Part shown: piece after piece, positions 18,437 through 64,000 of the stretch
How positions within the stretch are numbered: position 1 is the stretch's first letter
Layout of the letters: the number at the start of each line of letters is the position of its first letter
NCBI GenBank assembly: GCA_963776245.1
Contig: CAVZLN010000008.1
Span: 214,427-278,426 of the forward strand
DNA from: Candidatus Eiseniibacteriota bacterium
Lineage (GTDB): Bacteria; Eisenbacteria; RBG-16-71-46
Reading direction: 5' to 3'
DNA length: 64,000 nucleotides
The notes under the pieces: generated by a model
Told to the model about the DNA's origin: nothing
Database searches by the model: none
Seen by the model: the letters and a program-made list of their open reading frames with translations, nothing else
Position numbers and translations under genes: made by a program

Positions 18437-19303
18437 CGCGCCCCTCCCGCGAACCGGAACACGCCGGTGAACCCGGCGAGCGCGGCGCGGCGCCGGAGGC
18501 TCTCGGAGGCCTCGTCACCGACGCACGCCACGGTGCGCACCTTGTACAGCCCGCGCTCGCGCTCGACCACGAACGGCACCATGAGCTGGGACTCCGCCGC
18601 GGCGCGCAGTCCGGCCGCGCGGACGCGATCCGCGGGGGCGCCGACCTGGACCCGCCAGCAGCCGCCGGCGGCGGGGGCCGCGGGCGCCGGCTTCGCCTCC
18701 CCGGGGGTCGCCGCGGGGGCGCTCGGCGCGGCGGCCGGCGCGGCTCCCGGGACGCGCGCTCGCGCTGGTGTCGGGCGCGAGCAGGCGCTCGAGCGTGCCC
18801 GGCCGGTCCCCGAGCGGCTGGGTCGGCGCGGGCACCGGCACGTCGGCGGAGGTGCTGTCCGCGGGCGGTGCCGCCGCGCTGCCCGACGAGTCGGACGCGA
18901 CCGCGGGCGAAGGAGCGCCCGAGGCGGCCGACGCGGGCGGCACGGCCGCGCGCGCGGCCAGCAGTTCCTCGCGGGTCGGCGCGGGGACGCGCTCGCTCGC
19001 CGCCAGCGGCTCGGGGATCGCCGCCAGCACCGCGCGTCCCTCGGGCGAGACCGCGGTCGTGTCCACCGCCGCGCTCGCGGGGGACGCGGATGCGGGCGGC
19101 GCCGGCCGGGGCGCGGGCACGCCCGTCGCGGGCGGCGCGGGCCGCGTGCCCGGGGACGAGATGGGCATCATCCCGGCGCAGCCTCCGACCCCGAGAAGGG
19201 AAGCGCCCAGGACCAGGCCCAGCAGGACCAGGCCGCACGGGACGACGCGCGCCCGGGGTCGGCGATCGCGGGTTCCGCGGCGCATCGGCCGGCCCCCGCT
19301 CAT
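18433..19303 (-). CDS. SPOR-domain lipoprotein (peptidoglycan-binding); one frameshift
   Basis: ATG at 19301-19303 overlaps the manC stop (ATGA). There is a signal peptide with a lipobox (LLGVGGC). An Ala/Pro-rich linker follows. A C-terminal SPOR fold (CWRVQVGAPADRVRAAGLRAAAESQLMVPFVVERERGLYKVRTVACVGDEASESLRRRAALAGFTGVF) is readable only in the +1 frame from about 18750 to the stop at 18433. Confidence 0.6.
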
Positions 19304-20352
19304 GCCCCGCTCCGCGCCCGCACCGTCTCGGCCACCTGTCGCACCTGCCCGCTGTCCTCGAGCCGGCAACAGAGCGTCGAGCCCTCGGCGTGCACCACCA
19401 CCATGTCGCGCAGACCCATCGCCGCGGCCGTCCCCCCGTCGCCCACCACCACGCATCCGTCGCACTCGATCGCCACCGCGTCGCCGAACAGCACGTTGCC
19501 GCGCGCGTCGTGGGTCTGCCGCCGCGCCCACGCGCTCCACGAGCCGAGGTCGTCCCAGTCGAACGACGCCTCGAGCACCAGCGTGTTGGGCGCCCGCTCC
19601 ATCACCGCGTAGTCCACCGAGATGGACTCGAGTCCCGGGAACACGGCGTCGAGCGCGCGCTCGAATCCCGCGTCGCCGTCCTCCCAGCGCATCGCGTCGA
19701 GCGGCGCGTGGAGCGACGGGCGGAAGGACTCCAGCGCGTCCAGGAAGGTCTTCGCCCGCCACACGAAGATGCCCGCGTTCCAGGCGTACTCGCCGGTGGC
19801 GATCCAGGCCTCCGCGCTGGCCCGGTCGGGCTTCTCGGTGAATCTCGCCACGCGCGACAGGCGGTCGCCGACGGCGGCGCCCCGCTGGACGTAGCCGAAG
19901 TTGGTCTCGCCGTGCGTCGGGCGGATGCCGAACGTGAGCAGCACCGGCTCCCGCTCGCACGACTCGAACGCGCGCGCGAGGTCGGCCGCGAAGGCGTCCT
20001 CGTCGTCGATGGCGTGGTCCGCCGGCAGCACCGCGAACGAGGCCTGGGGCGCCTCGGCGCGGAACAGCACAGCGGCCGCTCCGGTGGCCGCCGCGGTGTT
20101 GCGCAGCATGGGCTCGCCCAGCACCCGCACCCCGGGGCACTCGCGGCGCACGGCGTCCACCAGGTCGCGCGCCGTGAGGATCACGATGCGGTCCCGGGGC
20201 GCCACGCGCCGCGCGCGATCGAGCGTGGCCGCGAGCAGCGAGCGCCCGCCCTTCGCGAGCGGCAGCAGCTGCTTCGGCCGGCCGGGACGGCTCCACGGCC
20301 AGAACCGCTCGCCGCGGCCGCCGGCGAGGATGAGGACGAATCGATCAGGCAT
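19300..20352 (-). CDS. manC: Mannose-1-phosphate guanylyltransferase
   Basis: 350 aa. MPDRFVLILAGGRGERFWPWSRPGRPKQLLPL shows the NTP-transferase fold, and conserved manC mid-region motifs are present. Confidence 0.85.
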   Translation of the reverse strand: MPDRFVLILAGGRGERFWPWSRPGRPKQLLPLAKGGRSLLAATLDRARRVAPRDRIVILTARDLVDAVRRECPGVRVLGEPMLRNTAAATGAAAVLFRAEAPQASFAVLPADHAIDDEDAFAADLARAFESCEREPVLLTFGIRPTHGETNFGYVQRGAAVGDRLSRVARFTEKPDRASAEAWIATGEYAWNAGIFVWRAKTFLDALESFRPSLHAPLDAMRWEDGDAGFERALDAVFPGLESISVDYAVMERAPNTLVLEASFDWDDLGSWSAWARRQTHDARGNVLFGDAVAIECDGCVVVGDGGTAAAMGLRDMVVVHAEGSTLCCRLEDSGQVRQVAETVRARSGA

Positions 20353-20481
20353 GCGAGGGTCTCCGGTGCGTCACGACGGACCCGGCAGGATAGGCTCGAC
20401 CGCGACCGCCGGCAAGGGCCGCCGGCCCGCGCGCGGCCGCCGGGCACGGCCGCCCCGCGGGGCGCGCGCCCGGGCGACCGG

Positions 20482-21585
20482 TCAGCCGCGCCTCTTGTCC
20501 AGCAGCTCGCGGTACACCGTCTCGGTGTTCTCGGTGACCTTCTCCCACGAGTAGTTCTGCAGGATGTGGCCGCGCGCCCGGCTCTCGTACTGCTTCACCA
20601 GGTCGGGCTGCAGGATGAGCTGCTCGAGCTTCTCGCGCAGGTCCGCCACGTCCTTGTTGCGGAACGAGGGCGCCACGCCCTCGGCCACCTCGCGGTTCTC
20701 GGGGATGTCCGAGATCAGCACGCACCGTCCGTACGAGAGCGCCTCGAGCAGGGCGATCGAGAGCCCCTCCATGGTCGACGGCTGCACCACGCAGTAGGCG
20801 TTGCTCCAGAGCTCCTCGAGGCCTTCGCCGAACACGTAGTCGAGCAGCCGCACGCGCGGGCCCTCGTACTGCCGCAGCAGGCTCACGTAGTCCTGCGAGA
20901 ACGACATCCCTCCCACCAGCGCCAGCGTCATGTCGGTGTCGATCCGCTGGAACGCCTCGCACAGGTAGTGCACGCCCTTCTCCGGCACCAGGCGCCCGAC
21001 GAACAGCACGTACTTCCCGGGCGTGAGGCCCTGCTGGAGGATCTTCTTCGCCGGCCGCTGGACCGGCAGCGCGGTGCCATTGGGGATGAACACGGTCTCG
21101 CGGCGGTGATGCTCGCGGAAGTAGTCGCGCAGCGTCTTCGACACCACGATGGTGCGGTCGGGGAAGTTCACCGCCGGCCCCTCGCACTGGCGCAGCACCC
21201 ACTGGGCCGTCCGCCCCCACTTCTCGCGCTGCCAGTCGAGGCCGTGCACGGTCACCACCGTCTTCGCGCCGCGCAGCCGCGGCAGACCGGCGAACAGCGA
21301 CGGCCCGAGCGCGTGGAAGTGCACCACGTCGTACCCGCGCAGGGTGGCCTCGAGCGTGCTCCACGCCACGTGGGTGGCGGTATCGAGGTGCTTGGTATGG
21401 ATGCTGGGCCGCCGCAGCAGGCGCACGCCCTCCATGCGGGCATCCGCGGGGGTGTAGTACAGCCGGCAGTACACCGAGAGGTCGTGGCCGCGCGCGGCGA
21501 GGCGCCGCGTGATCTCCTCGACGTGCCGCTCGATGCCGCCGTAGGTCGCGGGCACGCCCTTCTGGCCGATCATCGCGATCCTCAT
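20482..21585 (-). CDS. Glycosyltransferase family 4 (GT-B)
   Basis: 367 aa. Contains the FVGRLVPEKGV and EGLSIALLEALSYGRCVLISD EX7E-type motifs. Confidence 0.85.
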   Translation of the reverse strand: MRIAMIGQKGVPATYGGIERHVEEITRRLAARGHDLSVYCRLYYTPADARMEGVRLLRRPSIHTKHLDTATHVAWSTLEATLRGYDVVHFHALGPSLFAGLPRLRGAKTVVTVHGLDWQREKWGRTAQWVLRQCEGPAVNFPDRTIVVSKTLRDYFREHHRRETVFIPNGTALPVQRPAKKILQQGLTPGKYVLFVGRLVPEKGVHYLCEAFQRIDTDMTLALVGGMSFSQDYVSLLRQYEGPRVRLLDYVFGEGLEELWSNAYCVVQPSTMEGLSIALLEALSYGRCVLISDIPENREVAEGVAPSFRNKDVADLREKLEQLILQPDLVKQYESRARGHILQNYSWEKVTENTETVYRELLDKRRG

Positions 21586-21628: not shown

Positions 21629-22609
21629 TCAGCATGGCGCGCCCCCCGCCGTCACGGCACGCGTCGCGCGCACGCGGAAGAAGCCGACCACCAGCCCGGC
21701 GCCGTGCAGCGTCCAGGCGAGCAGCGAGAGGAACCCGAGGCGGAGGCTCGCCTTGCGCACGCTCATCAGGGCCCACACGCCGAACGGCATCAGCGCCCCG
21801 AGCGCCAGCAGGCCGGCGTCCCGGCGCGCGAGGGCGATCGCCGACGCGGGCAGCGCGAGCAGCCACAGCGCGAGCGTGCCGAGGTAGAGCGACTGGCGCC
21901 GCAACAGGCGGCCGAAGCCCGGGCGGCCGAGATACACGCGCAGCGCCTGCCCCTGTCCGAAGCACAGGCCGGTGCGCCAGCGCCGCCCCAGCTCCGCGAG
22001 CGACGGGCGCGGCGCGCTCCAGTGACGCGCGGCGAGCGGCGCGATGGCACGCAGTTCCAGCCTGGCGCGCGCGAACCTCAGGCCGAGCTCGAAGTCCTCC
22101 TCCGAGTTCAGGCGGGCGTCGTATCCCCCCACCGCGAGCAGCGCCGCGCGCCGGTAGAACGAGAGCGTCGCGGTGTACTCGGACGGATGGTCGCCGTCGC
22201 CGACCCGGTACAGATCGTGGCTGCCGGCGCGCTCGCCCGCGGCGTCCACGAACCACTCCTCGATGCGCCCCCACAGCCCGCCGATCGCCGGCTCGCCGGC
22301 GATCACCGCCGACGCGCGCGCGATCCACGCCGCTTCGACCTCGACGTCGGCGTCCACGAACAGCACCCAGTCCCCGTCGCACGCCGAGCAGCCGAGCATG
22401 CGCGCGGCGCCGGGGGTGAGCGGCTGCCCGACCGGCGGGGCGAGCACCGTCCAGCGCGACGAGAGCGCCGGCAGCGGTGCGGGATCGGGCGCGGAGCGCA
22501 CCAGCACCCCGCTCCAGTCGCGGCCCGTGAGCGCGCCCTCGAGCGCGGCCACGGTGCGCGGCAGGAAGCGCTCCTGGCGGTAGCACGGGATCACCACGCC
22601 GATCCTCAT
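21629..22609 (-). CDS. Glycosyltransferase family 2 with C-terminal TM helices
   Basis: MRIGVVIPCYRQERFLPRTVAALEG shows a GT2 N-terminus. A VDADVEV DxD-type motif is present, followed by hydrophobic C-terminal helices. Confidence 0.75.
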   Translation of the reverse strand: MRIGVVIPCYRQERFLPRTVAALEGALTGRDWSGVLVRSAPDPAPLPALSSRWTVLAPPVGQPLTPGAARMLGCSACDGDWVLFVDADVEVEAAWIARASAVIAGEPAIGGLWGRIEEWFVDAAGERAGSHDLYRVGDGDHPSEYTATLSFYRRAALLAVGGYDARLNSEEDFELGLRFARARLELRAIAPLAARHWSAPRPSLAELGRRWRTGLCFGQGQALRVYLGRPGFGRLLRRQSLYLGTLALWLLALPASAIALARRDAGLLALGALMPFGVWALMSVRKASLRLGFLSLLAWTLHGAGLVVGFFRVRATRAVTAGGAPC

Positions 22610-23767
22610 GACCGCCCCCGCGCCGCGTTCGCTCCGGCGAACGTGGCGAGCCCGAGCACCTCGTCGTACACCGATTCGAACGTCTCGACCACGCGGGACC
22701 AGGTGTAGTGCTCGCGCACCCGGTGCGCGCCGTCGCGGCCCATCCGCAGGGCGGCGTCAGGACGGCGATGGAACGCTTCGAGCGCTTCCGCCAGCGCGTG
22801 CGCGTCCCCGGCCGGCACCAGCCGCCCGTGCACCCCGTCCTCGATCACCTCGGGCACCCCCCCGACCGCGCTCGCGATGGTCGGGCGGGCGCGCACCAGT
22901 CCCTCGAGCAGGCTGAGCGGCAGTCCTTCCCAGCGCGAGGGCAGCACCACGGCGTCGGCGGCGGTGAGCAGCGGGCCGATGTCGTCCACCTGCCCCAGGA
23001 AGCGCACCCGCGCGGCCACGCCCAGCTCCCGGGCCCGCGCCTCGAGCGCCGCGCGGCGGCTCCCCTCGCCCGCGAACGCCGCCACGAACTCGAGGCCGTG
23101 GCCCTGCACCCGGGCGAGCGCCTCGAGCAGCACGTCGTGGCCCTTCTGCGCCTCGAGCCGCGCCACGCACACCCACAGCGGGCGCAGCGGCCCGGCGCCG
23201 AGTCGCTCGCGCAGCGCCCGCGCCGGCACCCACTCGGCCATCTCGTCGGGCAGGTCGGCGCCGTTGGGCACGATGCGGATGCGCTCCCGCGCGAGTCCAT
23301 GGTCGCGCACCAGCGTGTCGGCGACCGCGCCGCACACCGCGGTCACCGCGCCGGCGTGGGCCAGCTCGCGGTAGCGGAGCGTGTCCGGCGACGACGGGTG
23401 GGCGGGGCCGGTGACGTGCTCGGTCACCACCAGGTGGGGGACGCCGGCGAGGCCGGCGAGCGCCGAGAGGTAGCGGTCCGCCGCGGGCCAGACGTGGTGC
23501 ACGTGGAGCAGGTGCGGACCGGCGCGGCGCAGGCGCCGCCAGGTGTCGAGCATGCCCTTCCAGTCCCAGCGCGAGTCCACCTCGGGCACCCGGTCCACCG
23601 GGATGTCGCGCGCCGCGAGCGCTCCCGCCAGCTCGTCCACGCCGGGCGCGGTCGCGAGCCACACCCGCACGTCGAAGCGGGCGCGCGGCAGACGCGTGGC
23701 CAGCTCCCAGACGACCCTTTCGGTGCCGCCCACGGAAGTGCCGCTCTCGGCGAGCACCACGCTCACG
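22606..23767 (-). CDS. Glycosyltransferase family 4
   Basis: GT4 motifs (VARLEAQKGHDVL and LPSRWEGLPLSLLEGLVRARPTIASAVGGVPEVIEDGVHGRL). The GTG start at 23765-23767 overlaps the upstream stop (GTGA). The stop overlaps the downstream GT2 start (ATGA at 22606-22609). Confidence 0.8.
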
Positions 23768-24977
23768 CGTGCTTCGGAGGTCCGCATAGCCGGTCGTAGG
23801 CCTCGAGCAACTGGACCTTGCTGAACTCCCATGCCATCGATTCGATGAAACGCTTCCGGTTGTAGGCACCCATGCGCGCGCGGCGGTCGGGATCGTCGAG
23901 CAACTCGACGATGCGCTCCGCCATGTCGGCCACCTGATTGGGGCGGGCGTACAGCGCGCCCTCACCCGCCGAGAAGCGGTGCTCGCGCAGGTCGTAGCAC
24001 ACGATCGGCCGGGCGCACGCCATGTACTCCAGGATCTTGTTCATGGTCGAGATGTCGTTGAGCGGATTGAGCGGGTCCGGCGACACGCACACGTCGGCGG
24101 TGGTCAACACGCGCTCGACATCGGCGTCGGGGATGCGGCCGGTGAACTCGACGAACGGCTCGAGCCCGAGCTCCCGGGTGAGCCGCCGCAGGTCCTCGAA
24201 CGAGTCGCCGCCGCCCACCAGCGTGAACGACACGTCGTGGCGCCCGAGGTCCTTCACCACGTGGCGTGCCGCGCGCAGCAGGTGGTCGACGCCGTCCTGC
24301 GGCGCCATCACACCGAGGTAGGCGACCAGGAAGGTCCGCCCGCGGCGGAGCGCGGGGTCGGGCGCCCGCCCGGCCGCGAAGCGCTCGCGGCTCGGGCCGC
24401 TGCGCACCACGACCACGCGGTGGCCGGGCACCCGCCCGCGGGTCATCGCCACCTCGCGGTAGGACTCGTTGGTCGAGATCACCAGGTCCGCGGTCGCGAA
24501 CTGCAGGCGCTCGAGCAGCCGCAGCGCGCGGTGGAGCGGATCGCCCTCGCGCTGCGACCCGAAGCGCGCTACGTAGAGCTCGGGGCACAGGTCATGGTGA
24601 TCGAACACGAAGCGCTTCCCGAACAGCTTGAACGGGGCGGCGATGGCCCAGAAGGTGTCGGGCGGATTGGCGGCGTGGATGACGTCGAAGCCGCGACGCG
24701 CCAGCACCACGAACGTCAGGCGCAGGGTCTGGAGCCAGCAGTAGAGGAACTCCCAGGCGTAGGACATGAACCCGCGCGCGGGCGGAGGCGCCGGGTAGCG
24801 CCAGATGTGGATGTCGTCGATCACCTCGTGGGCGCGGGTCCACTGCTCGCCCTTCGGGCAGATCGCCGACACCTCGAAGCCGCCGGCGCGGAGCGCGTTG
24901 AGCTCCATCCACACGCGGCGGTCGAATGGCAGCGGGAGGTTCTCCGAGAGGTGGAGGACCCTACCACGCGAGGCCAT
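23763..24977 (-). CDS. Glycosyltransferase family 4 (WbuB-like)
   Basis: 404 aa. Contains YLGVMAPQDGVDHLLRAA and VSPDPLNPLNDISTMNKILEYMACARPIVCYD. Confidence 0.8.
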   Translation of the reverse strand: MASRGRVLHLSENLPLPFDRRVWMELNALRAGGFEVSAICPKGEQWTRAHEVIDDIHIWRYPAPPPARGFMSYAWEFLYCWLQTLRLTFVVLARRGFDVIHAANPPDTFWAIAAPFKLFGKRFVFDHHDLCPELYVARFGSQREGDPLHRALRLLERLQFATADLVISTNESYREVAMTRGRVPGHRVVVVRSGPSRERFAAGRAPDPALRRGRTFLVAYLGVMAPQDGVDHLLRAARHVVKDLGRHDVSFTLVGGGDSFEDLRRLTRELGLEPFVEFTGRIPDADVERVLTTADVCVSPDPLNPLNDISTMNKILEYMACARPIVCYDLREHRFSAGEGALYARPNQVADMAERIVELLDDPDRRARMGAYNRKRFIESMAWEFSKVQLLEAYDRLCGPPKHA

Positions 24978-26285
24978 GGTACTCCCCGGCGGACACGCTG
25001 GACGGATCGACGGCGTGCACCAGGTCCACCAGCACCTGGCCGGGCTTCAGCATCCGGCCCACGTCCCGGTACTCCGGCGAGCCGTTCGCCACCACCACCA
25101 CCTCGCTCTGGTCCACCACCTCGCGCACCGTCGCGCGCAGCCGGTCGGGCAGGTAGGGCACCTCGTCCTCGACGAAACGGCGGTTGGCGCCGAGCACCCG
25201 TTCCATGTCCACGTTGGGGTCGTGGAGCGACAGGGTGTAGCCCTTGCCGACCAGCGTCCCGATGACGCGCAGGATGGGGCTCTCGCGCAGGTCGTCGGTC
25301 CCGGCCTTGAACGACAGGCCGAGCACGCCCACCTTGCGCAGCTTGAATCGTTCGATCATCGCGATCGCGGCCTCGACGTGGACGTCGTTGGAGCGCATCA
25401 CCGAGTAGAGCAGCGGCAGATCGAGCTGGCCCTGCCGGCCCGCGCGCGCTCAGGGCGCGCACGTCCTTGGGCAGGCACGAGCCGCCGAAGGCGAACCCCG
25501 GCTTGAAGTAGTACGCGCTGAGGTTGAGACGCGTGTCCTTGCAGAACAGGCGCATCACCTCGTGGCTGTCGACGCCCTCGCGCTTGGCCCAGCGGCCGAC
25601 CTCGTTGGCGAACGCGACCTTGAGCGCGTGGAACGTGTTGTTCACGTACTTGAGCGTCTCGGCGGTGCGGATGGGGGTCACCAGCATCTCGCCCCCGACA
25701 TCGCCGTACATGTCCCGCATGACCTGCGCGCTCCGCGCGTCGCCCGCGCCGAGCACGGTGTACTCGGCGCCGAAGAAGTCGGCGACCGCGCTCCCCTCGC
25801 GCAGGAACTCGGGGTTGTAGCCGACGCCGAAGTCCACGCCCGCCCGCTTGCCCGACGCGCTGCTCGAGCACCGGCGTGAGCTCCCGCTCGACGCTGCCCG
25901 GCAGCATGGTGCTGCGCTGCACCACCACCGTCCAGCGGCCACTGGCGGCGATCGCCCACCCGACCTCGGAGCAGGCGCGCTTCACGTGGTCCAGGTTCAG
26001 GCTGCCGTCCTCGGCGCTCGGGGTGCCGACGCACACCAGCACGATGTCGGCCTCCCGCATCGCCTCCGCGATGCGCGTCGTGGCGCGCAGCCGCCCGGCG
26101 TCGCGCGACGAGCGGATGAGATCCGCGAGGCCGTTCTCGACGATCGGGCTCTCGCCGCGCTCGATGCAGTCCACCTTGTAGGCGTTGGTGTCCACGCCCG
26201 TGACCGAGTGCCCGCGGGTGGCGAGACAGGCCGAGCACACCGAACCCACGTAACCCAAACCGACCACCACGACGTTCATGTCCAT
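24961..26285 (-). pseudogene. ugd: UDP-glucose/GDP-mannose 6-dehydrogenase, split by 2 frameshifts
   Basis: N-terminal frame gives MDMNVVVVGLGYVGSVCSACLATRGHSVTGVD. The middle frame gives DFGVGYNPEFLREGSAVADF...FGGSCLPKDV. The C-terminal frame gives GLSFKAGTDDLRESP...AGEYHGLAW. The shifts lie near 25810-25840 and 25390-25400. Confidence 0.75.
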
Positions 26286-26293
26286 CCTCTCGG

Positions 26294-27799
26294 CTATCGC
26301 GCGGCGCGACCCCGCGGGGTCTCCTGCGCCAGCCGCAGCCTCAGGTGCCAGAGACGGACGCCGTTCAGCGCGAAGCGCTCAGCGTCCGGGTAGAGTGTAT
26401 CGAATCGGCGCGCGAAGGCGCCGGACGGATCCAGGTCCTCGGTACGGCTCGCCACCACCCACACCCCGCCCGCGCCCTCCATCGCCTCGCCCATCATCCG
26501 GTCGAGGCGCTCCGGGTGCCCGATCAGCCCGAGCCACACGGCGGCCGCCGGGAGCGGACCGCGATAGTAATACGCGAGCGGGTCCTCGGTGTTAATCGAG
26601 ATGATCCGCTCGTCTGCCGAGGCCCGCGCGCGCAGGATCGCGGCCGCGCCCCGGTAGTCCTCCTTGCCGTAGCGCGGATCCCAGTAGTGGTGGACGAGCG
26701 AGAGCGCCCAGAGCGCCGCCACCGCGCCGCCCAGGACCCGCCTCGTCCCCACCCGGGCATCGGCCAGCCCGGCCGCCAGCACCAGCAGGAACGCCGGCAT
26801 CGCCACCATCAGGTAGCGTGGATTGAACACTTTGAAGTTCGATGCCGCCATCCACGACAGCAGGGCCGCTGGCGCCGCCATCCACAGCCACGCATCGAAG
26901 GTCCGGCCGCGTCGCGCCACCGCCCGCAGGCCGAGCAGCCCGAGCGTTCCGAACACCAGCGCCACCACTGCGATGCCGGGCGCGTGGCGCGCGACCGTGG
27001 CCAGACCGGCGTCGGCTCGCAGCTCGCGCAGCGAGGGCCCGAGCGTGTACCCGACCGCGAACGCGTGGAGCGCGAACGGCAGCGCCGCGGCGTGGAAGGT
27101 CGTGGACCCGCGCAGCGCAAGCTCGTCCGGGGCCGGCACCCGCCCCGGGCTCAGCCGCGCCCAGTCCCAGGTGCGCGACAACTGGGGCAGGAACGGCAGG
27201 CCGACGAGCGCGAGCAGCGCGAGCACACCGGCGAGCAGCGCCAGCCGCCGCGCGCGCCCCGCGGCTCCACCCCACCACCACCAGGCGTGCACCGGCACCA
27301 CGAACAGGAAGGTCCAGTTGGAGAGCAGCCCGCCGGCGGCGGCCGCGGCGTAGCCCAGCACGGTGCGGGTCCGCGGGGCCCGGGCGAGCCCGAGCAGCGT
27401 CCCCGCGGACAGCACGGTGCAGAGCGCCAGCAGCGCGTAGTTGCGCGACTCCTGCGAGTACCACACCAGGAACGGGGAGCCTGCGGTCAGCCAGGCCGCC
27501 GGCAGGGCGGTCTCGCGCCCGAGCCAGCGCCCGGCGAGCCACGCCATGGCCGGCACGGTGGCGATGCCGAACAGCGCCGAGGGCAGGCGCATCGCCCACT
27601 CCGAGTCGCCCGCCACGCGGGTCCAGGCATGCACGATCACGCTGAAGAGCGGGCCGTGGAGCTCGTGGACCAGGTCGGCGAAGAGGAACGGACGGCCGAC
27701 GCTGGCGTTCACCCAGGTGAGCACCTCGTCGATCCACAGACTCTGCGAACCGAGGCGGAACAGGCGCAGCGCCGCCGCCACCAGGATGGCGGCAGCCAA
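26294..27799 (-). CDS. GT-C membrane glycosyltransferase, GT39/83 (PMT/ArnT-like) family
   Basis: 501 aa. The N-terminus ALRLFRLGSQSLWIDEVLTWVNAS matches the PMT_2 signature. There are many TM helices and a C-terminal soluble domain. Confidence 0.75.
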   Translation of the reverse strand: MAAAILVAAALRLFRLGSQSLWIDEVLTWVNASVGRPFLFADLVHELHGPLFSVIVHAWTRVAGDSEWAMRLPSALFGIATVPAMAWLAGRWLGRETALPAAWLTAGSPFLVWYSQESRNYALLALCTVLSAGTLLGLARAPRTRTVLGYAAAAAGGLLSNWTFLFVVPVHAWWWWGGAAGRARRLALLAGVLALLALVGLPFLPQLSRTWDWARLSPGRVPAPDELALRGSTTFHAAALPFALHAFAVGYTLGPSLRELRADAGLATVARHAPGIAVVALVFGTLGLLGLRAVARRGRTFDAWLWMAAPAALLSWMAASNFKVFNPRYLMVAMPAFLLVLAAGLADARVGTRRVLGGAVAALWALSLVHHYWDPRYGKEDYRGAAAILRARASADERIISINTEDPLAYYYRGPLPAAAVWLGLIGHPERLDRMMGEAMEGAGGVWVVASRTEDLDPSGAFARRFDTLYPDAERFALNGVRLWHLRLRLAQETPRGRAAR

Positions 27800-54370: not shown

Positions 54371-54381
54371 TGGCCGCGCTC

Positions 54382-56934: not shown

Positions 56935-57911
56935 CGAGCCGCCTCGGGGTCGGCGGCCAGTCGCCGGGTCAGCAGCCGCGTCACGTGGCCGATCAGCCCG
57001 GCGACATGCGCCGCGCGGCGCCGGCGCCGCGGCGCGAACGGGGCGAGCGCCGCGTTCTTCAGGAGCGTCAGCGCCAGGCTCAGGATGAGGCTCAGCTTGA
57101 ACAGGAACGCGAGAGGAGGCGTGAAGGAGAGGTCCCAGAAGTAACAGGCCGACTCGAGGTTCGCGGCGGGCATGGACTCGCCCTCGAAGATGCGGCTCTG
57201 CCCGCCGAGATGCGTGACCTGGGCTCGCGGCTCGTACGCGAGGCGCAGGCCGGCCCGGCGGGCGCGCAGGCTCCACTCCACGTCGTCGTAATTGAGCACC
57301 AGCCGCCGATCGAGCAGACCCACGCGCTCGAGCGCTTGGCGACGGAACAGCACGCATGCCCCCGACAGCACCTCGGTCTCGTGCGGTCCCCCATACCACG
57401 CGCGGGGGTGGGCGCCGCTCACCCACCCGAGCAGCGCCGGGATGCGCGCCGGGATCGGGGTGTGGCCCAGCAACGTGGGCAGCACGCCGGGCGCCCGGCG
57501 CGCGCACACGAACTGGGTGGTCCCGTCGGCGTTGAGCAGCCGCGGGCCCGCCGCCGCGAGCCCCGGATCCCCCTCGAGCCGCCGCGCCAGTTCGCCGAGC
57601 GCGTCCCCGATCAGGAACGCGTCGGAGTTGAGCGCCAGGACGTGGCGGCCGCGCGCCGCGCGCAGCCCCTGGTTGCAGGCGGGAGCGTAGCCCCGGTTCT
57701 CCGGATTGCGGACCAGTGTCACCGCGGGCCAGCGCTCCGCGACCCACTCGGCCGAGCCGTCGGACGACGCGTTGTCGATGACCAGCACCTCGCGCGACAA
57801 CTCCGGGCTGCTGGCGAACGCGGCCTCCAGACAGCGGTCGAGCATCCGGCGCGTGTTCCAGCTCACGATCACGATGGAGACGTACGGTGCGGCGGCCGGG
57901 AGGTCAGACAT
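56931..57911 (-). CDS. Glycosyltransferase family 2 (rhamnosyltransferase-like)
   Basis: Translation VSIVIVSWNTRRMLDRCLEA...VIDNASSDGS...LNSDAFL shows GT2 motifs. Confidence 0.8.
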   Translation of the reverse strand: MSDLPAAAPYVSIVIVSWNTRRMLDRCLEAAFASSPELSREVLVIDNASSDGSAEWVAERWPAVTLVRNPENRGYAPACNQGLRAARGRHVLALNSDAFLIGDALGELARRLEGDPGLAAAGPRLLNADGTTQFVCARRAPGVLPTLLGHTPIPARIPALLGWVSGAHPRAWYGGPHETEVLSGACVLFRRQALERVGLLDRRLVLNYDDVEWSLRARRAGLRLAYEPRAQVTHLGGQSRIFEGESMPAANLESACYFWDLSFTPPLAFLFKLSLILSLALTLLKNAALAPFAPRRRRRAAHVAGLIGHVTRLLTRRLAADPEAAR

Positions 57912-59388
57912 CCTGGCCCTCCTGCCCCGGCACGCTCGCGGTGCGCAGGCGCGCGCGCACCGCCGCCTTGATCTGCGCGATCTCCAGCGGGGTGATCGAG
58001 GTGGCCGCCCACAGCAGCGCGATGCCCGCGCCGACCAGGCGCCAGCGCCAGTCCGGGAAGGGCAGCGCGGCCACCGCGATCACGGCGGCGAACGAGGTGG
58101 CCAGCAGGCGCAGGTTGTCGCGCGTGAAGCGGAATCCGTTCACGCGGCGCAGGTAGATCACGTGCATGCCCAGGTGCACGCTCCACGACACGGTGTGGCC
58201 CCACACCGCGCCCCACAGGCGCTGCTCGGCGGGCACGCCGAAGAAGATGGCGGCGAAGGTGCCGTAGTGGATCAGCGACATGATGTTGCGGGCCCGGTGA
58301 CGCTCCTGGGGCAGCAGCGGCAGCTGGATGGCGAAGGAGACCGCCTTGACGAGATCGCCCACCAGTTGGACCGGGAACAGCGGCAGGGCGTCCAGGAACC
58401 GGCTCGAGAACAGCAGGTGGATGACCACGTCGCGGGACAGCAGGATGGCCAGGATGCCCGCCGCCGAGAACAGCACGGCGACGCGCGTGGCGTTATTGAC
58501 CTCCTGATTGATGGCCGCGACCTCGCGCAACTGGCTGATGCGGGGGAAGGAGTACGCGGTCATCGCATTGAGCGGGATGGCGAGGTACTGCATGGAGATC
58601 GCGAACAGCGCCTGGAAGATGCCATTGCGGGTCAGACCGCAGTCGTGGACGATCTGCGCCCGCAGGACGAACGGGAAGGCCATCGTGAGGACGAACGGGA
58701 CGAAGTTGGCCGCGCCGAATCGCCACAGGCTGGTGACGACCGTGCGGTCGAAGGGCGCCCGCGCGATCGCCTGCCGCATCTCGCGGTCCATCGTCCGATC
58801 GGCCGTCCAGCGCGCCACGGCCCAGCCGAGCACGGCGAACACCAGCAGGTGGATCGAGGCGCCCTTGAGCCTCCAGATCAGCACCAGCGGCGCCAGCACC
58901 GCGAGTCCGCCGATCGAGGTGATCATGATGGCGCGCGAGTAGGAGCGGATCTCGAGTCCGGCCTGCACGAACATGAGCCAGGTCTGCGACTGCACCAGGA
59001 ACGGGATGCCGAGGACCGGCGCCACCAGCATCACCATGTAGATCGGATCGCCCGTCGCCCACACCGTCAGCGGCTTGAGCCAGACCAGGCACAGCGCGGT
59101 GGCGATCAGCGAGAGCCAGAGGAAGAGCCGCGCCGCGGTCGCGACGAACGAGACCAGCCGCTCGCGGTCCTCCTTGCGGTAGAGCGCGACGTAACGAAGC
59201 GCCCCGGTCTGCAGTCCCAGAGGCACCACTCCGGCAGCGAGGCTCTGCAGCCCGAAGAGCTGGGCGAACAGCCCGATCCCGGTGGGACCGAGCACCTCCG
59301 CGAGGAGCTTGTTGCGCAGCACGGCGACGGCGGTGTTGGCGATGGTCGAGGTGCCGATCAGGAACACCGAACGGAGCAGGGCTCTCAT
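57904..59388 (-). CDS. wzx: Wzx/MOP-superfamily oligosaccharide flippase
   Basis: ATG at 59386-59388 overlaps the upstream stop (ATGA). 494 aa with about 12-14 TM helices. The N-terminus LLRSVFLIGTSTIANTAVAVLRNKLLAEVLGPTGIGLFAQ is typical of polysaccharide biosynthesis (PST) flippases. Confidence 0.8.
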   Translation of the reverse strand: MRALLRSVFLIGTSTIANTAVAVLRNKLLAEVLGPTGIGLFAQLFGLQSLAAGVVPLGLQTGALRYVALYRKEDRERLVSFVATAARLFLWLSLIATALCLVWLKPLTVWATGDPIYMVMLVAPVLGIPFLVQSQTWLMFVQAGLEIRSYSRAIMITSIGGLAVLAPLVLIWRLKGASIHLLVFAVLGWAVARWTADRTMDREMRQAIARAPFDRTVVTSLWRFGAANFVPFVLTMAFPFVLRAQIVHDCGLTRNGIFQALFAISMQYLAIPLNAMTAYSFPRISQLREVAAINQEVNNATRVAVLFSAAGILAILLSRDVVIHLLFSSRFLDALPLFPVQLVGDLVKAVSFAIQLPLLPQERHRARNIMSLIHYGTFAAIFFGVPAEQRLWGAVWGHTVSWSVHLGMHVIYLRRVNGFRFTRDNLRLLATSFAAVIAVAALPFPDWRWRLVGAGIALLWAATSITPLEIAQIKAAVRARLRTASVPGQEGQDV

Positions 59389-60861
59389 GCGCGCGCCCCT
59401 CCGGCCGCCCACGCGCGCGCCAGCGCGCCGATGCCGAGCCCGCGCGCGAACCACCACAGGACCGGCGCGTACACCAGCGCCACGGCGGCGGTGCGCAGCC
59501 ACGCGGCGCCCGCGGATGACGGCGGACCGACCGCGCACACCGCGAATGCCGCCGCCCCCGCCCACGCCGCGGGCAGGAAGCTCGCGATCGCGAACGTCAG
59601 ACGCTCGACCGGCCCGCTCCGCAGGTCGCGCGCCGCGAGCGCCACCAGCGTGATCGCGAACGCCGCCGTAGCCGAGGCACGCCGCCCCCGCCACCGCGGC
59701 CGGGACGCGGAGCGCGCGCGGCGACACCGAACACCATCATCGCGGTGAGCGCGGCGCACGCCGCCGAGGCGCGCGAACAGGGTCCACGTGCGGCCGCTGC
59801 CGAGCAGCCAGTAGCCCGGCAGGGTGGCGGCCGACAGCAGGAGCGCGCCGAACGCGAGCAGGCGCAGGGCGTCGATGCCTCCGCCGTAGCGCGGCAGCCA
59901 CCACAGCACCGCGCGGCCCCGCCCACACCATGCCGATGCGCGACCGCGAGCGGGAGCAGCAGCGTGAGGACGCGCTGCGTGCGGGTCACTTCGTCGCGGG
60001 TGCGCTCGAGGTCGCGCGCGCCGCCGGCCGCCGCCGCGATGCGCGGGTAGAGCACCGCGGCGACGGACTCGGGCGGGTAGAGCACCAGGCCCGCGGCGGT
60101 GAGCCCGAGACTGTAGAGGCCGAGGGACTCGGGGTGGCCGGCGTGGACGAGCGCGATCCGGTCCACCGATCGCAGCGCCAGCGAGGCGAGGAAGGTGCCG
60201 AACACCGGCAGTCCGGCCCACGCCAGCGCGAGCCCGTCGCGCGCGTCGCCGAACGCGAGCGGCACGTCGCGTGCGACGAGACGCAGCGCGCGAGCGCCAC
60301 CAGCGTGCCGACGCAGCCATCCGCCGGCCAGCGCCCACAGACCGAAGCGCGCCACCAGCGCCAGCCCCAGGCCACCACCGAGCAGCGCCTGCAGCGCGGT
60401 GGCCTCGCTCACCGGCGGAACACGCCGCGCGCCCGGAGCGCGGTGGCGTGCAGCTGGAACGCGAGCTGGGCCGCGGCCGCGGCGAGCAGGAGCATCGCGG
60501 GACCCGGCCCGGCGACCGCGGTGAGCAGCGGCGTGCCCGCCACCAGCGCGGCGCCGACGGCGAGCGCGAACAGCGCGAACGCCGCCGCGATCACGGACCA
60601 CGCGCCGCCGAGCAGGCGCCGCGCCGCGGCGCGGTCGCCCTGGCCCTCGGCCACCGGCAGGCGCAGCTCGAGGCCCTGCAGCGCGCCGGCCGAGGCGTAG
60701 CCGCCGTAGTCGAGCACCAGGCTGAGCGCGTTCCACGCCCCGAAGCCGGCGGGCCCGAGCACCACCGCCGCCACCAGCCCGCGCGCCAGCATCACCGCTC
60801 GCGCCACGTAGGTGGCGAGGGCGAGGCCGACCGAGTCGCGGATCAGGGTGCGGGGGGACAC
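59385..60861 (-). pseudogene. Second MOP/PST-family flippase, split over 3 frames (2 frameshifts)
   Basis: The N-terminus MSPRTLIRDSVGLALATYVARAVMLARGLVAAVVLGPAGFGAWNALSLVLDYGGYA reads in frame 1 (60409-60861). The middle reads in frame 2 (ALQALLGGGLGLALV...LYSLGLTAAGLVLYP...). The C-terminal TM region reads in frame 3 (ALRLLAFGALLLSAATLPGYWLLGS...). The shifts lie near 60410 and 59860-59930. Confidence 0.55.
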
Positions 60862-60924: not shown

Positions 60925-62170
60925 ATGCACGCGCCCCCGCCCCCACCCCGCGATCTCGCCACCCCGCCCGTGCATCCCGAGCGGCTCGCCTCGCTGGGCG
61001 GCCGCCCGGTGCGCGACACGTTCCTGCCGCTGGCGATGCCGTGGATCGGCGAGCGCGAGAAGGCGCTCGTGCTCGAGACGCTCGAATCCGGCTGGATCAC
61101 CACCGGCCCGAAGGCGCAGGCCCTCGGCGAGCGCATCGCGGCGCTCGCGGGCGCGAAGCACGGGCTGGCGGTGAACTCCGCCACCGGCGCGCTCCATCTC
61201 GCGCTCGCCGCACTCGGCGTGGGCCGGGGCGACGAGGTCATCACGTCGGCCTACACCTTCGCCGCCTGCGTCAACGTCATCGAGCATGTCGGCGCCACGC
61301 CGGTGCTGGTGGACGTCGAGCCCGACACGCTGTGCCTCGACCCGCGCGCCGTCGAGCGCGCGCTCACCCCGCGCACGCGGGCCGTCATGCCGGTGGACTA
61401 CGCCGGGCACCCGTGCGATTACGGGGCGCTCCTGCCGCTGTGCCGCGCCCACGGCGTGCACGTGGTCGAGGACGCCGCTCACGCCCTCGGCGCCGCGTGG
61501 CGCGGGCGCGCCGGTCGGCTCGTTCGCCGACGTCACCGCGTTCTCGTTCTACGCGACCAAGAACCTCACCACCGGCGAGGGGGGCGCCGCGGTCACCGCG
61601 GACGACGCCCTCGCCGAGCGCATGGCGCTGCTCTCGCTGCACGGCATGAGCCGGGACGCCTGGAAGCGCTACGGCGACACCGGGTCGTGGTACTACGAGG
61701 TGACCGCGCCGGGATTCAAGTACAACTTCAGCGACGTGCTCGCGGCGCTGGGGCTCGGCCAGCTCGAGCGCTTCGAAGGGTTCCAGCGCCGCCGCGCGGA
61801 GATCGTGGCGCGCTACGACGCCGGGCTCGCCGGGGTGGCCGGGGTCCGCACCATGCGGGCCCGCCCGGACGTCACGCACGCCCGCCATCTCTATCCGATC
61901 GCGCTCGAGCTCGAACGGCTCACCCTCGATCGCGCGGCATTCATCCGCGAACTGCGGGCCGAGAACATCGGCACCTCGGTGCACTTCATCCCCATCCACT
62001 TCCACCCGCACTTCGCCCGCACGCTCGGCCGCCGCGAAGGGGATTTCCCGGTCGCCGAGGACGCCTACCGCCGGGCCGTGACGCTGCCGCTGTTCCCGCG
62101 CATGAGCGACCGCGACGCCGACGACGTCGTCGCGGCCGTGATCAAGGTCGCCGCGCACTTCGCCCGCTGA
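60925..62170 (+). pseudogene. DegT/DnrJ/EryC1/StrS-family PLP-dependent sugar aminotransferase; one frameshift near 61500
   Basis: The N-terminal half (MPWIGEREKALVLETLESGWITTGPKAQALGERIAALAGAKHGLAVNSATGALHLAL) is in one frame. The C-terminal half (FSFYATKNLTTGEGGAAVT...LSLHGMSRD...) is in the +1 frame and ends at 62170. Confidence 0.75.
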
Positions 62171-62199: not shown

Positions 62200-63205
62200 T
62201 CACGTCGCGTCCTCGGTGGCCTGACCCAGCGACGCCAGCGACAGCCCCTCGCGATTCAGGTAGACCAGGCCCACGACGGTGATCGGCAGCCACTGGCTCG
62301 CGAGGTAGAACCACGAGAACGCCGCCGCCGGGCCCGGGGACACCTTGAACAGCGCGAGCCCCGCCACGCACGCCGCATTGAGCGGGCCGACGTAGCCGGG
62401 CGCCGACGGCACCATGATGCCGATGGCTGTGACCACCAGCATGAGCAGCGCGACGTCCCAGCCCGAGCAGGATGTCGAGCGACCACAGGCTCAGCCAGAT
62501 GGCGAACGCGTACACCAGGAACATGCCGAACGAGAGCGACAGCACCACCGCCAGCCGCCGGACGTCGCGGAACAGCCCGAGTCCCTCGATGAACTGGTCC
62601 AGCAGGTGCTGCACCTTGGCGCGCGGGCGGGCGGGCAATGGACGGGTGATCAGCCCGACGAAGCCATGCGCCAGCCGCGGACTGCGCTCGAGCAGGACGA
62701 TGAACACCGTGAGCGTGGCGCTCAGGATGACCAGCAGCAGCGCGCCCTTCTGCAGCAGCTGCGCGGCGGCGGTCTCGGTCGAGATCGGGTGCACGAACAG
62801 CGCGACGCCGAGCAGGGCCAGCAGCGTGAGCATGTCGATGGCCCGCTCCACCACGATGGTGGCGAGCAGCATCGTCTTCGACAGCCCCTCGCGCCGCGCC
62901 AGCGCCCATGGCCGCACGAACTCCCCGAGCCGCAGCGGCAGCACCATGTTCGCCATGAATCCGATCATGGTGGAGCTGAACAGACTGTCGCCGGAGATGC
63001 GCCGCGGCGCGGCGATCAGCAGTCGCCAGCGCATCGCCCTCACCCAGAAGCCGAAGATGGTGAGCGCCATGGTGCCCACGAATCCGAGGTAGTTGGCCTC
63101 GCGCAGGACGTGCATCATCTCGGACAGCGAGACGTGGCGCATGGCCAGCCAGACGCACACGACCGAGACCACCAGCGCGATCAGGATGTTGAGCCATCGC
63201 TTCAC
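62200..63205 (-). CDS. Flippase-like / lysyl-phosphatidylglycerol-synthase-TM-region (UPF0104) family membrane protein; one frameshift near 62450
   Basis: GTG start overlaps the DUF2304 stop (GTGA at 63202-63205). The N-terminus WLNILIALVVSVVCVWLAMRHVSLSEMMHVL is followed by about 8 TM helices. The last roughly 80 aa (IGIMVPSAPGYVGPLNAACVAGLALF...) are in a second frame. Confidence 0.5.
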
Positions 63206-63579
63206 TGGGTCCCCCTGTCCGTGGACGCCGCCCGCAGTTCCTCGAGCTCGCGCCGCACCAGCGCCAATTCGCGGATGGTCTCCGCATGGTCGCGCCCGAT
63301 CCGCGTCAGGCGCACCGAGAGATACAGCAGCATCGTGGTGCCGAAGGCCAGCCCGACCAGGAACACCATGCTGCTCTCGTAGAGGATCCCGAGGGCGTGG
63401 GTCAGGCCGCGCAGGGCGGGGGTCCAGAATCCGAGCACCGCCGCGACGGCGCTCGAGACCATCCACAGGAACGAGTACTCCTCGGCCAGCCGGCGACGTC
63501 GTACCAGCTCGAGCACGACGAGCGCGAGCGCCATCGCGCCGACCGCCGTGATGACCTGGGTCCTCGACAGGAAGTCCAT
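63202..63579 (-). CDS. DUF2304-family small membrane protein (second copy)
   Basis: GGAGGAGGGG ribosome-binding site, then ATG at 63577-63579. Translation MDFLSRTQVITAVGAMALALVVLELVRRRRLAEEYSFLWMVSSAVAAVLGF matches the 39081-39470 protein in architecture and motif (RRKRL/RRRRL...EEYS/EQYSLLW). Confidence 0.6.
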   Translation of the reverse strand: MDFLSRTQVITAVGAMALALVVLELVRRRRLAEEYSFLWMVSSAVAAVLGFWTPALRGLTHALGILYESSMVFLVGLAFGTTMLLYLSVRLTRIGRDHAETIRELALVRRELEELRAASTDRGTQ

Positions 63580-63596
63580 CGGCCCCTCCTCCGCGG

Positions 63597-64000
63597 TCAG
63601 TCGCGCCGCGTCAACAGCGCCATCAGCGATGCGAGCAGGTTCTTGTACGGGTAGTAGAGCTGCTTCCCCAGCGTGTAGAACGATCGTCCGGCGGTCCGCT
63701 CGCGCATCTCCACCGGGACCTCGCACAATCGGAATCCCCGGCGGGCGAGCGCGATCAGCAGCGGCGCGTCCGGGAAGTCCGCCGGGAAGTCGTACTGGCA
63801 GACCTCCATGACCGCGCGCCCGTACGCTCGGAAGCCCGACGTCGTGTCGGCGATCCGGCCGCCCGCCGCGAGACGTACCACCCATGCGAACAGCACCATC
63901 CCCGCGCGGCGCAGCGGCGGCGCATGGTACGCGGTGTGGGCCACGTAGCGCGAGCCGATGCACACGTCGGCCCGGCCGGCGAGCACCGGTTCCGCCACCG
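63597..64000 (-). CDS. GT2 polyprenyl-phosphate glycosyltransferase (DPM1-like), C-terminal part only (gene continues beyond window end)
   Basis: Translation ...CIGSRY...ADTTSGFRAYGRAVME...FPDAPLLIALARRGFRLCEVPVEM matches the conserved DPM1/GtrB C-terminal half. It lies immediately upstream of a DUF2304 gene, the classic pairing. Confidence 0.7.
   Translation of the reverse strand, partial: VAEPVLAGRADVCIGSRYVAHTAYHAPPLRRAGMVLFAWVVRLAAGGRIADTTSGFRAYGRAVMEVCQYDFPADFPDAPLLIALARRGFRLCEVPVEMRERTAGRSFYTLGKQLYYPYKNLLASLMALLTRRD

Follow-up and report, generated by a model that had tools for sequence, protein, structure and literature searches.

The 64,000-nucleotide stretch of contig CAVZLN010000008.1 analysed here (hereafter, the window), assigned to Candidatus Eiseniibacteriota, carries between positions 19300 and 64000 a long array of glycan-biosynthesis genes. 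Among them are a FemAB-like transferase, a polysaccharide deacetylase and an AsnB-type amidotransferase, enzymes of families known from the loci of exosortase A (XrtA) and its PEP-CTERM substrates. On balance, this region is probably a Wzx/Wzy-type surface-glycan super-locus, for exopolysaccharide (EPS), capsule or an O-antigen-like polymer, that works without an exosortase. No protein-sorting half appears to be missing from it: membrane glycosyltransferases (GTs) of the GT-C fold occupy the place of the exosortase beside the tailoring enzymes. The gene content and its conservation, the GT-C fold of two proteins lacking annotation, and the linkage of this clade of FemAB proteins to GT-C rather than to XrtA are directly supported. 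The locus is of the familiar Wzx/Wzy class, with a priming transferase (Bac_transf, 216 bits), a Wzx (E = 5e-26), a Wzy_C protein (52.7 bits), GTs and nucleotide-sugar genes. Its notable variant is the coupling of an XrtA/Vim-type cassette to non-annotated GT-Cs across a candidate phylum.

The GC content of the window is 73%, so that raw lists of open reading frames (ORFs) consist mostly of spurious frames, and genes were called with a self-trained codon-usage model. The resulting gene models are sound, because seven of the eight products that were looked up are byte-identical to database entries, all from one 428,720-bp NCBI/ENA contig. By gene calls and hidden Markov models (HMMs), the priming transferase, AsnB, deacetylase, FemAB, CapK, GT4s, Wzx and Wzy reported by the initial annotation were all recovered where it had placed them. 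The nearest FemAB homologues, 59-84% identical, are overwhelmingly metagenomic, and five of the six with a named source carry the label Candidatus Eisenbacteria; as judged from sequence, the source is a high-GC bacterium closest to that group.

The linkage evidence comes from a profile search of genome contigs with the FemAB alignment, which gave 80 loci in two tiers, the best match being 80% identical. Clade A comprises loci with FemAB at 52% identity or more and 65-75% GC, mostly from metagenome-assembled genomes (MAGs) labelled Candidatus Eisenbacteria. Clade B, with FemAB 33-43% identical to that of the window, comprises Geomonas and other Geobacteraceae, Desulfuromonadales, Desulfobulbales, Zixibacteria, Ignavibacteria, Nitrospira and others. 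Counts were made in the 49 loci where FemAB is flanked by 5 kb or more on either side, XrtA being scored within 10 kb. The GT-C of the 676-amino-acid (aa) type found in the window accompanies FemAB in 18 of the 23 informative clade-A loci and in none of the 26 of clade B, whereas XrtA is found in none of the former and in nine of the latter. A hexapeptide-repeat acetyltransferase is present in 21 loci of clade A and eight of clade B, the deacetylase in 21 and 15, and AsnB in 12 and seven. Fisher's test between the clades gives p = 2.9e-9 for GT-C and 0.0019 for XrtA, values that overstate independence because the loci are phylogenetically related. The acetyltransferase of clade A mostly lies within 40 bp of FemAB, and the XrtA of clade B mostly 1-3 kb from it. 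Five clade-A loci (L030, L043, L044, L047 and L049), with delta- or alphaproteobacterial MAG labels and 65-75% GC, hold FemAB, the hexapeptide acetyltransferase and the deacetylase without the 676-aa GT-C and without XrtA; the cassette can thus travel without either partner. One further locus, L058, labelled Eremiobacterota, lacks GT-C, XrtA, acetyltransferase and deacetylase.

The conserved core runs in the order Wzy_C protein; CapK-like enzyme, AsnB paralogue or PMT_2-type GT-C; FemAB; hexapeptide acetyltransferase; multi-transmembrane (TM) protein of about 680-700 aa; deacetylase. In some loci a Dpm1-like GT2 precedes the deacetylase and a DUF2304 protein follows it. A second conserved pair is formed by AsnB and a multi-TM protein of about 850 aa without Pfam domain.

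Several searches for an exosortase bear on the same point. In the window, no called protein matches an exosortase or archaeosortase model at E <= 1e-3, a six-frame scan returned no PEP-CTERM tail, and no Wza or Wzc model finds a match, all as the initial annotation had reported. The model scans of window proteins also returned no PrsK/PrsR, no PEP-CTERM-type pair of chain-length determinant and tyrosine kinase, and no Wza-like exporter. The sole window protein of exosortase-like dimensions (13260-14480, 406 aa with 8 TM helices) was rejected as a candidate, being a PMT_2 protein with no exosortase match. Among the relatives, unassigned multi-TM ORFs were clustered and representatives scanned. 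One cluster, confined to clade B, is exosortase A, its member L052:11958-13049 serving as positive control by passing TIGR03109 (221.4 bits against a cutoff of 208), and a TIGR03097-like ligase lies near exosortase A, below its cutoff (128.5 against 188.1). Representatives of eight of the larger unassigned clusters, with the largest cluster scanned again against Pfam, yielded no exosortase besides XrtA. A custom XrtA HMM, made from 10 sequences clustered with the one that passes the exosortase A model, matched 10 clade-B loci and none in clade A, and with filters switched off and E <= 10 allowed it still found nothing among the six-frame ORFs of the window. No exosortase was detected in about 650 kb of clade-A sequence, nor in some 45 kb of further context around a second glycan module (see below) in L006, L087 and L088. 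The search for PEP-TM-basic tails that the initial annotation had proposed, run in six frames over the window and 86 loci, gave PMT_2 C-termini only: the four regular-expression hits, all in relatives, are conserved termini of the form RYRIPxEP and were rejected.

The scores against PEP-CTERM-specific models point the same way, with one exception. The initial annotation had held that a sub-cutoff deacetylase, FemAB and AsnB, together with a genome lacking any exosortase, would count against a PEP-CTERM link. The deacetylase fails TIGR03006 (221.3 bits against 276.2), the AsnB-like protein lies below TIGR03108 (569.7 against 816.9) and the priming transferase fails TIGR03013 (162.4 against 393.35), but FemAB passes TIGR03019 with a margin of 3 bits (263.7 against 260.35). 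The GT4s reach at best 149.8 against 409 on the stp2 model, 106.5 against 442 on stp3 and 42 against 317 on stp1; on TIGR03087, TIGR03088 and TIGR04063 they thus stay at or below 149.8 where 317-442 is required, a quarter to a third of the cutoff. As a control, XrtA-containing loci give 390.6 and 395.4 bits for FemAB and 388.8 and 393.3 for the deacetylase, and another Eisenbacterial locus gives 277.9 and 221.6, respectively. By sequence comparison, the FemAB and deacetylase of the window form a sister subfamily that scores 130-170 bits below the proteins linked to XrtA. The AsnB score says less. The AsnB of L083 (11976-13847), with XrtA about 3 kb away, reaches 645 bits on TIGR03108 and that of L051 (11959-13827), with no XrtA within 10 kb, 666 bits, both under 816.9. 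Since the protein of an XrtA-carrying locus fails too, this cutoff does not discriminate, and it appears to be too strict outside the seed lineages. Between the two possibilities that the initial annotation had left side by side, scores and context favour a distinct EPS system that shares enzyme families with XrtA loci, and not a sorting and export half lying elsewhere.

The two GT-C proteins are the most distinctive part of the locus. For the 676-aa protein (35423-37453), 75 homologues were found, every one of them annotated as hypothetical, and of 1.84 billion cluster representatives 1,224, 751 and 284 fall into its family at E <= 1e-3, 1e-10 and 1e-30, respectively. Its AlphaFold model (pLDDT 90.6, pTM 0.93) finds ALG12, PglB, Pmt4, AftA and AftD among its fold matches, and that of the 850-aa protein (54382-56934; pLDDT 93.5) finds STT3B, ArnT, AftA and AglB with scores of 15.5, 15.4, 15.0 and 15.0. 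According to these predicted structures, both proteins have the GT-C fold. By hhalign (98.4%, E = 4.5e-15, over 585 columns) one family is a distant paralogue of the other, a relationship that comes from profile-profile comparison only, as BLASTP among the TM proteins of the window gives no match. An invariant Asp/His loop motif is common to both (D144-x-W-x-H148, D153-x-P-D-H157). Profile searches of both families against PDB sequences gave no match, and neither family has a Pfam or NCBIfam model, with faint sub-threshold traces of DUF6541 and DUF2298 in relatives only. In L001 and L007 (L001:11549-14323), a GT-C of the 676-aa type and a Dpm1-like GT2 form one 924-aa ORF, which may have arisen naturally by fusion or come from a frameshift in the assembly; in the window, in L002 and in L006 the two are separate genes. 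This fusion supports a coupling of sugar donor and acceptor. The 850-aa protein has in addition a beta-sandwich resembling the carbohydrate-binding domain of Wzt, which suggests a glycan acceptor.

These genes can be arranged into a putative pathway. Nucleotide sugars would be supplied by the guanylyl- and nucleotidyltransferases, the Ugd-like dehydrogenase, the short-chain dehydrogenase/reductase (SDR) dehydratases and epimerases, the GFO/IDH/MocA oxidoreductase and the DegT aminotransferase. The short phosphoglycosyl transferase would then prime polyprenyl phosphate, and the repeat unit would be extended by the seven GT4s and several GT2s. An amino or uronic sugar may be tailored in the cytoplasm, where the deacetylase, of carbohydrate esterase family 4 (CE4), would bare an amine, the FemAB/VimA-like transferase would acylate it, probably with an amino acid, and the linked hexapeptide acetyltransferase would add an acetyl group. 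Matches of the FemAB family profile to FemX-type transferases in the PDB fit with amino-acid transfer. The AsnB/WbpS-like amidotransferase, the CapK-like ligase or both could turn a uronic carboxylate into an amide. Wzx would flip the unit, and the Wzy_C protein would polymerise or ligate it. Additional sugars might be attached at the inner membrane's outer face, from polyprenyl-monophosphate donors made by four Dpm1/ArnC-like GT2s, with DUF2304 and LPG_synthase_TM proteins as presumed flippases, and transferred by at least four putative GT-Cs (13260-14480, 26294-27799, 35423-37453 and 54382-56934). The succession of GT-C, GT2, CE4 deacetylase and small membrane protein resembles ArnT, ArnC, ArnD and ArnE/F, so that deacetylation and acylation might alternatively take place on a lipid-linked sugar.

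Several observations weigh against the view that the locus is a surface-glycan system independent of exosortase. FemAB does pass its PEP-CTERM model by those few bits, and XrtA-system models are by a wide margin the best ones for the deacetylase and AsnB, which makes these two the closest kin of XrtA-system enzymes. The XrtA HMM is narrow, being built from 10 related sequences, and could miss divergent exosortases in the relatives' loci; the scans covered the window and those loci, and the source genome may encode an exosortase elsewhere. The relatedness of the compared loci has been mentioned. No Wza or other outer-membrane polysaccharide export (OPX) gene was seen in the window or the fetched loci of relatives, and without a Wza-type exporter the glycan has no evident way to the cell surface. 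Lastly, several genes are frameshifted, and in this organism the locus could have lost part of its function. The first of these points are also what speaks for a true XrtA/PEP-CTERM system of which the window would hold the biosynthetic half, with exosortase, substrates, PrsK/PrsR and exporter elsewhere in the genome: TIGR03019 is passed, TIGR03006 and TIGR03108 are the top matches of deacetylase and AsnB, canonical XrtA clusters hold the same set together with CapK and wzy (PMC3684757), and the failure on TIGR03108 is uninformative when distant-tier AsnBs, including that of XrtA-carrying L083, fail too. We nevertheless regard this as unlikely, given the zero of 23 clade-A loci with XrtA near FemAB against nine of 26 in the distant tier, the lack of exosortase in the clade-A and second-module sequence scanned, the 130-170-bit deficit of FemAB and deacetylase relative to XrtA-containing loci, the priming transferase and GT4s far under the PEP-CTERM models, and the GT-C enzyme that fills the position between FemAB and deacetylase. 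A different proposal would have the product serve as an aminoacylated "linking sugar" that anchors secreted proteins through another sorting system, such as one resembling the secretion system of type IX (T9SS) that attaches proteins to A-LPS in Bacteroidota, with FemAB giving the amino-acid nucleophile. Eisenbacteria are usually put in the FCB group together with Bacteroidota. FemAB, deacetylase, AsnB, DegT, GFO/IDH/MocA and hexapeptide acetyltransferase map onto the Wbp/Vim set (PMC7468200). The proposal is hard to sustain, however, with no T9SS component or cargo with the C-terminal domain in the window or fetched loci, no literature found tying Eisenbacteria to T9SS, and a dehydrogenase closer to the UDP-glucose type (124 bits) than to the UDP-GlcNAc dehydrogenase TviB (30 bits); moreover, the adjacent acetyltransferase, were it to cap the aminoacyl amine, would block attachment of protein.

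The two GT-Cs might instead resemble oligosaccharyltransferases, handing over a completed glycan as one block to proteins or lipids, which would make this a protein-glycosylation rather than an EPS locus, and the window's lack of a Wza exporter would fit. This is quite improbable, because equal scores are reached by ArnT, PMT, ALG and Aft enzymes, whose donors are monophosphates and whose acceptors are sugars or lipids, no WWDYG-type motif occurs among the invariant columns, the fusion or adjacency to Dpm1-like GT2s points to single-sugar polyprenyl-monophosphate donors, and the beta-sandwich of the 850-aa protein suggests a glycan acceptor. A bolder variant, to which we give only slight credence, is that in Eisenbacteria an ancestral sortase link of the FemAB/deacetylase/AsnB module has been replaced by the two phylum-restricted GT-Cs, which would attach an aminoacylated sugar or glycan to envelope proteins or another surface polymer; if true, such attachment would be an undescribed, oligosaccharyltransferase-like surface decoration built on a lipid-linked, aminoacylated amino sugar. 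There is also the matter of decay. At least four locus genes are split by frameshifts, namely those for Ugd, DegT, the flippase-like protein and a membrane protein of about 490 aa (491 aa in a relative), which could mean that the locus is decaying and that these are true pseudogenes of a pathway non-functional in this organism. For all four, matching an intact orthologue to the window takes two or three reading frames. The coding signal (GC at third codon positions above 0.9) runs on through each break, every break falls on or close to a short G/C run, and the assembly of the relative L006 is fragmented in another gene, Wzx; for these reasons indels of assembly are favoured, and the splits suggest that a long-read assembly introduced errors, not that the genes are pseudogenes. 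A MAG with long contigs is the closest relative, and GlgA, aspartate kinase and FolE, housekeeping genes from outside the locus, are broken likewise, all of which makes decay very doubtful. Outside 19300-64000, the affected stretches are 10428-11564, 11876-13600 and 14477-16009; GlgA and aspartate kinase are split there, and FolE and a GT2 are apparently merged into one chimeric ORF.

Returning to the gene content of the exosortase-independent glycan locus that we favour, twelve co-directional genes between 30406 and 42389 either overlap by 4 bp or stand no more than 19 bp apart, and look like an operon. This set includes a Wzy_C-domain membrane protein, polymerase or ligase, with 10 TM helices (31077-32516(+); Wzy_C cutoff 31.7), followed by a CapK-like adenylate-forming enzyme (32513-33871(+); AMP-binding 31 against 29.9), whose L001 orthologue has a weak CapK_C match and whose position is taken by an AsnB paralogue in L002 and L004. 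Next come the FemAB/VimA-like transferase (33868-34890(+); Acetyltransf_6, 61 bits), the hexapeptide-repeat acetyltransferase that is its near-constant partner in clade A (34887-35426(+)), and the 676-aa GT-C without family annotation (35423-37453(+)), predicted to have 12 TM helices and an AglB-like periplasmic domain. A Dpm1/ArnC-like GT2 (37470-38204(+); PpgS-like 90 bits, AglJ 83 bits) precedes the VimE/TIGR03006-like CE4 deacetylase (38201-39079(+)), which carries Polysacc_deac_1 and DUF3473; an ArnD-specific assignment of the latter was rejected, as only generic CE4 relatives were found. A DUF2304 small membrane protein (39082-39471(+); 87 bits) and a conserved 140-aa protein of no assigned function (39491-39913(+)) are both kept in L001, L002 and L006. 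The series closes with a GMC-type oxidoreductase (39904-41517(+); GMC_oxred_C, 32 bits) and an SDR epimerase-like protein (41514-42389(+); Epimerase, 48.7 bits), a pair whose orthologues in L001 and L006 are 80-92% identical.

Further to the right lie a GT4 (42399-43577(-); EpsE-like, 114.6 bits, sub-cutoff) and a 729-aa fusion of a Zn-dependent alcohol dehydrogenase with a GFO/IDH/MocA sugar oxidoreductase (43579-45768(-); Pfam ADH_zinc_N and GFO_IDH_MocA), a fusion also seen in L088 (716 aa) and strongly matched in L037. They are followed by a 492-aa DUF362 protein (45984-47462(+); 104.9 bits) that, within this glycan locus, weakly matches the "Npun_F2552 family". The stretch 47494-50154(-) holds an SDR epimerase/dehydratase, a sugar-1-phosphate nucleotidyltransferase and a LegB-like 4,6-dehydratase (TIGR04180, 395.4 against 475). 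Two GT4s (50201-52455(-)), whose orthologues adjoin AsnB in L004 and L005, stand next to the AsnB/WbpS-like glutamine-dependent amidotransferase (52452-54371(-)), which exceeds the cutoff of TIGR01536 (485.9 against 267.1). The second non-annotated GT-C, the 850-aa distant paralogue with its extra beta-sandwich domain (54382-56934(-)), is paired with a GT2 bearing C-terminal TM helices (56931-57911(-); Glycos_transf_2, 80.8 bits), as in L006, where the orthologous GT2 also adjoins its GT-C. The Wzx-type flippase has 9 TM helices (57904-59367(-); WzxE-like, 91.9 bits, below the equivalog cutoff). After it, a conserved membrane protein of about 490 aa and of no family spreads over three frames (59385-60861(-)), and its 491-aa orthologue from L006 aligns to frames -2/-1/-3. 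This orthologue has no Pfam or NCBIfam match, and the copies of L087 and L088 have no Pfam match on record. Multi-TM proteins of about 485-490 aa are also present at L006:6026-7501, L087:8002-9471 and L088:8550-10004; this protein adjoins the 850-aa GT-C in L088 and lies close by in L087, and in the window and L006 the GT2 and Wzx stand between the two.

At 60925-62170(+) a DegT-family sugar aminotransferase lies in two frames, its C-terminal half being PseC/ArnB-like and the 401-aa L006 orthologue aligning to frames +1/+2. The remaining genes form a second lipid-linked-sugar module, comprising a frameshifted LPG_synthase_TM flippase-like protein (62200-63205(-)), a DUF2304-like protein (63202-63579(-)) and a partial Dpm1-like GT2 (63597 to beyond 64000(-)), in a gene order (62200-64000) that is repeated in L006, L087 and L088. 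In L088, the locus also holds a heparinase II/III-like protein (18617-20716) absent from the window, which could be a glycan-modifying or glycan-recycling lyase.

The locus continues past the right end of the window. Beyond the counterpart of its last gene, L087 and L088 carry a second Wzx-like flippase, a phosphodiesterase-family protein, a protein of about 385 aa and one of 266-287 aa. L088:390-1187 is a homologue of bacterial tyrosine (BY) kinases, matching VpsO, CapB, PslE, BceF and the kinase domain of Wzc with E-values down to 4e-8; the copy at L087:1-604 is partial at the end of the locus, with faint AAA_31/ParA matches only. From this syntenic position in L088, a Wzc-type BY-kinase is placed just past the edge, probably some 4-5 kb beyond position 64000, and the initial annotation was right that Wzc is absent from the window, while a place for the gene elsewhere in the genome is probably not the case. 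The next gene in L088, a partial ORF at the end of the locus, encodes a 466-aa protein without annotation that may be the polysaccharide co-polymerase partner.

Glycan genes are also present to the left of 19300. About 5 kb from that point, interleaved with GlgA, GalT and a GlmU-like gene, lies the PMT_2-type GT-C of 406 aa and 8 TM helices (13260-14480(-); PMT_2, 39.8 against 26.1 bits). It is 46% identical to the L010 member of a PMT_2-type TM family, other members of which stand directly upstream of FemAB in many Eisenbacterial loci, and this kinship extends the glycan system to the left beyond 19300. The ORF at 18518-19300(-) was considered as a frameshifted phosphomannose isomerase domain of ManC and rejected for want of any family match. 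Its neighbour is a mannose-1-phosphate guanylyltransferase-like protein consisting of the nucleotidyltransferase part only (19300-20352(-); TIGR01479, 259.9 against 372.95, profile positions 4-347 of 467). Four GTs follow: a GT4 (20482-21585(-)), a GT2 with C-terminal TM helices (21629-22609(-)) and two more GT4s (22606-23832(-) and 23763-24977(-)); the best PEP-CTERM scores given above for stp2 and stp3 belong to this group. The Ugd-like NDP-sugar 6-dehydrogenase occupies three frames (24961-26285(-)), with the N- and C-terminal halves of TIGR03026 in separate ORFs, and the intact 438-aa orthologue of L001 aligns to frames -3/-1/-2 at 82-93% identity. A PMT_2-type GT-C of 501 aa (26294-27799(-); PMT_2, 43 against 26.1; Agl23-like, 58 bits) and the priming polyprenyl-phosphate phosphoglycosyl transferase in its short form (28035-28982(-); TIGR03025, 286.4 against 295.55) come next. 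Two Dpm1/ArnC-like GT2 polyprenyl-phosphate sugar synthases (29456-30223(+) and 30406-31080(+)) lead into the genes around FemAB, with sub-cutoff scores throughout (PpgS-like 58.9, dolichyl-phosphate hexose transferase 126 and AglJ 120 bits).

These findings have consequences for annotation. Names of the type "XrtA/PEP-CTERM system-associated" have spread to a whole protein clade in XrtA-free loci, and the TIGR03019 cutoff lets the Eisenbacterial sister clade of FemAB in by a few bits. The Eisenbacterial FemAB proteins are named "PEP-CTERM system-associated" by JGI, in a clade where none of the 23 informative loci has XrtA within 10 kb. FemAB, deacetylase and amidotransferase are better seen as a portable sugar-tailoring cassette coupled to varied downstream machinery: the exosortase in Geobacter-type loci, T9SS in Bacteroidota and GT-C here. 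A literature search found no paper on Eisenbacteria dealing with exosortase, T9SS, exopolysaccharide, PEP-CTERM or glycosyltransferase. The two conserved GT-C families defined here, with confident models and clear genomic partners, offer a tractable entry to the envelope glycans of an uncultured soil and groundwater phylum.

Among known systems, canonical XrtA clusters combine deacetylase, FemAB, AsnB, CapK and wzy with PrsK/PrsR, a chain-length/kinase pair and PEP-CTERM proteins (PMC3684757). The premise of the initial annotation, that the families listed in it co-occur in such loci, is therefore right, though they are not exclusive to them (PMC7468200). Like XrtA loci, the window has a TIGR03006-type deacetylase and a TIGR03019-type FemAB close together, along with AsnB, CapK, Wzy, a priming transferase, GT4s and Wzx. 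Unlike them, it lacks exosortase, EpsI, PEP-CTERM protein, PrsK/PrsR and TIGR03097 ligase, and its FemAB is accompanied by a hexapeptide acetyltransferase and by the set of GT-C, GT2 and DUF2304, the latter set never being found in the XrtA-type loci compared.

For the chemistry of tailoring, the Vim/Wbp pathway offers a precedent. Veith et al. (2020) reported that VimA, which matches TIGR03019, sets which amino acid is incorporated, direct transfer being suggested, that VimE is a putative CE4 deacetylase, and that WbpS, which matches TIGR03108, makes the uronamide in P. gingivalis, as established by mutation (PMC7468200). The products proposed for Porphyromonas and Tannerella are 2-N-seryl- or glycyl-3-N-acetyl-glucuronamide or mannuronic acid, and homologues of vimA and vimE adjoin Wbp genes in Pseudomonas, Aeromonas and Vibrio, which to those authors' knowledge are exosortase-free (PMC7468200). 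All members of the set in P. gingivalis and Tannerella forsythia (VimA, VimE, WbpS and WbpA/B/D/E) have counterparts in the window at the level of family, aminotransferase, oxidoreductase and acetyltransferase included. On the other hand, the dehydrogenase of the window looks Ugd-like and not WbpA-like, so that a strict Wbp route is not demonstrated; there is no T9SS context, and a linkage to GT-C has not been described for the Vim pathway. The likeness to ArnC-ArnD-ArnE/F-ArnT and GtrA/GtrB/GtrC is looser, as ArnC-like scores are 33-51 against a cutoff of 529, no ArnD- or ArnT-specific model is reached, and the acceptor in the window is probably a glycan and not lipid A. With STT3, AglB and PglB, the two GT-Cs have in common a predicted GT-C membrane domain followed by a periplasmic domain that, in the models, superposes on the C-terminal domain of AglB. 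Beyond this common fold they differ, with no Pfam STT3 match, no sequence match in the PDB and no WWDYG-type invariant columns, and their genomic partners are synthases of monophosphate-linked sugars.

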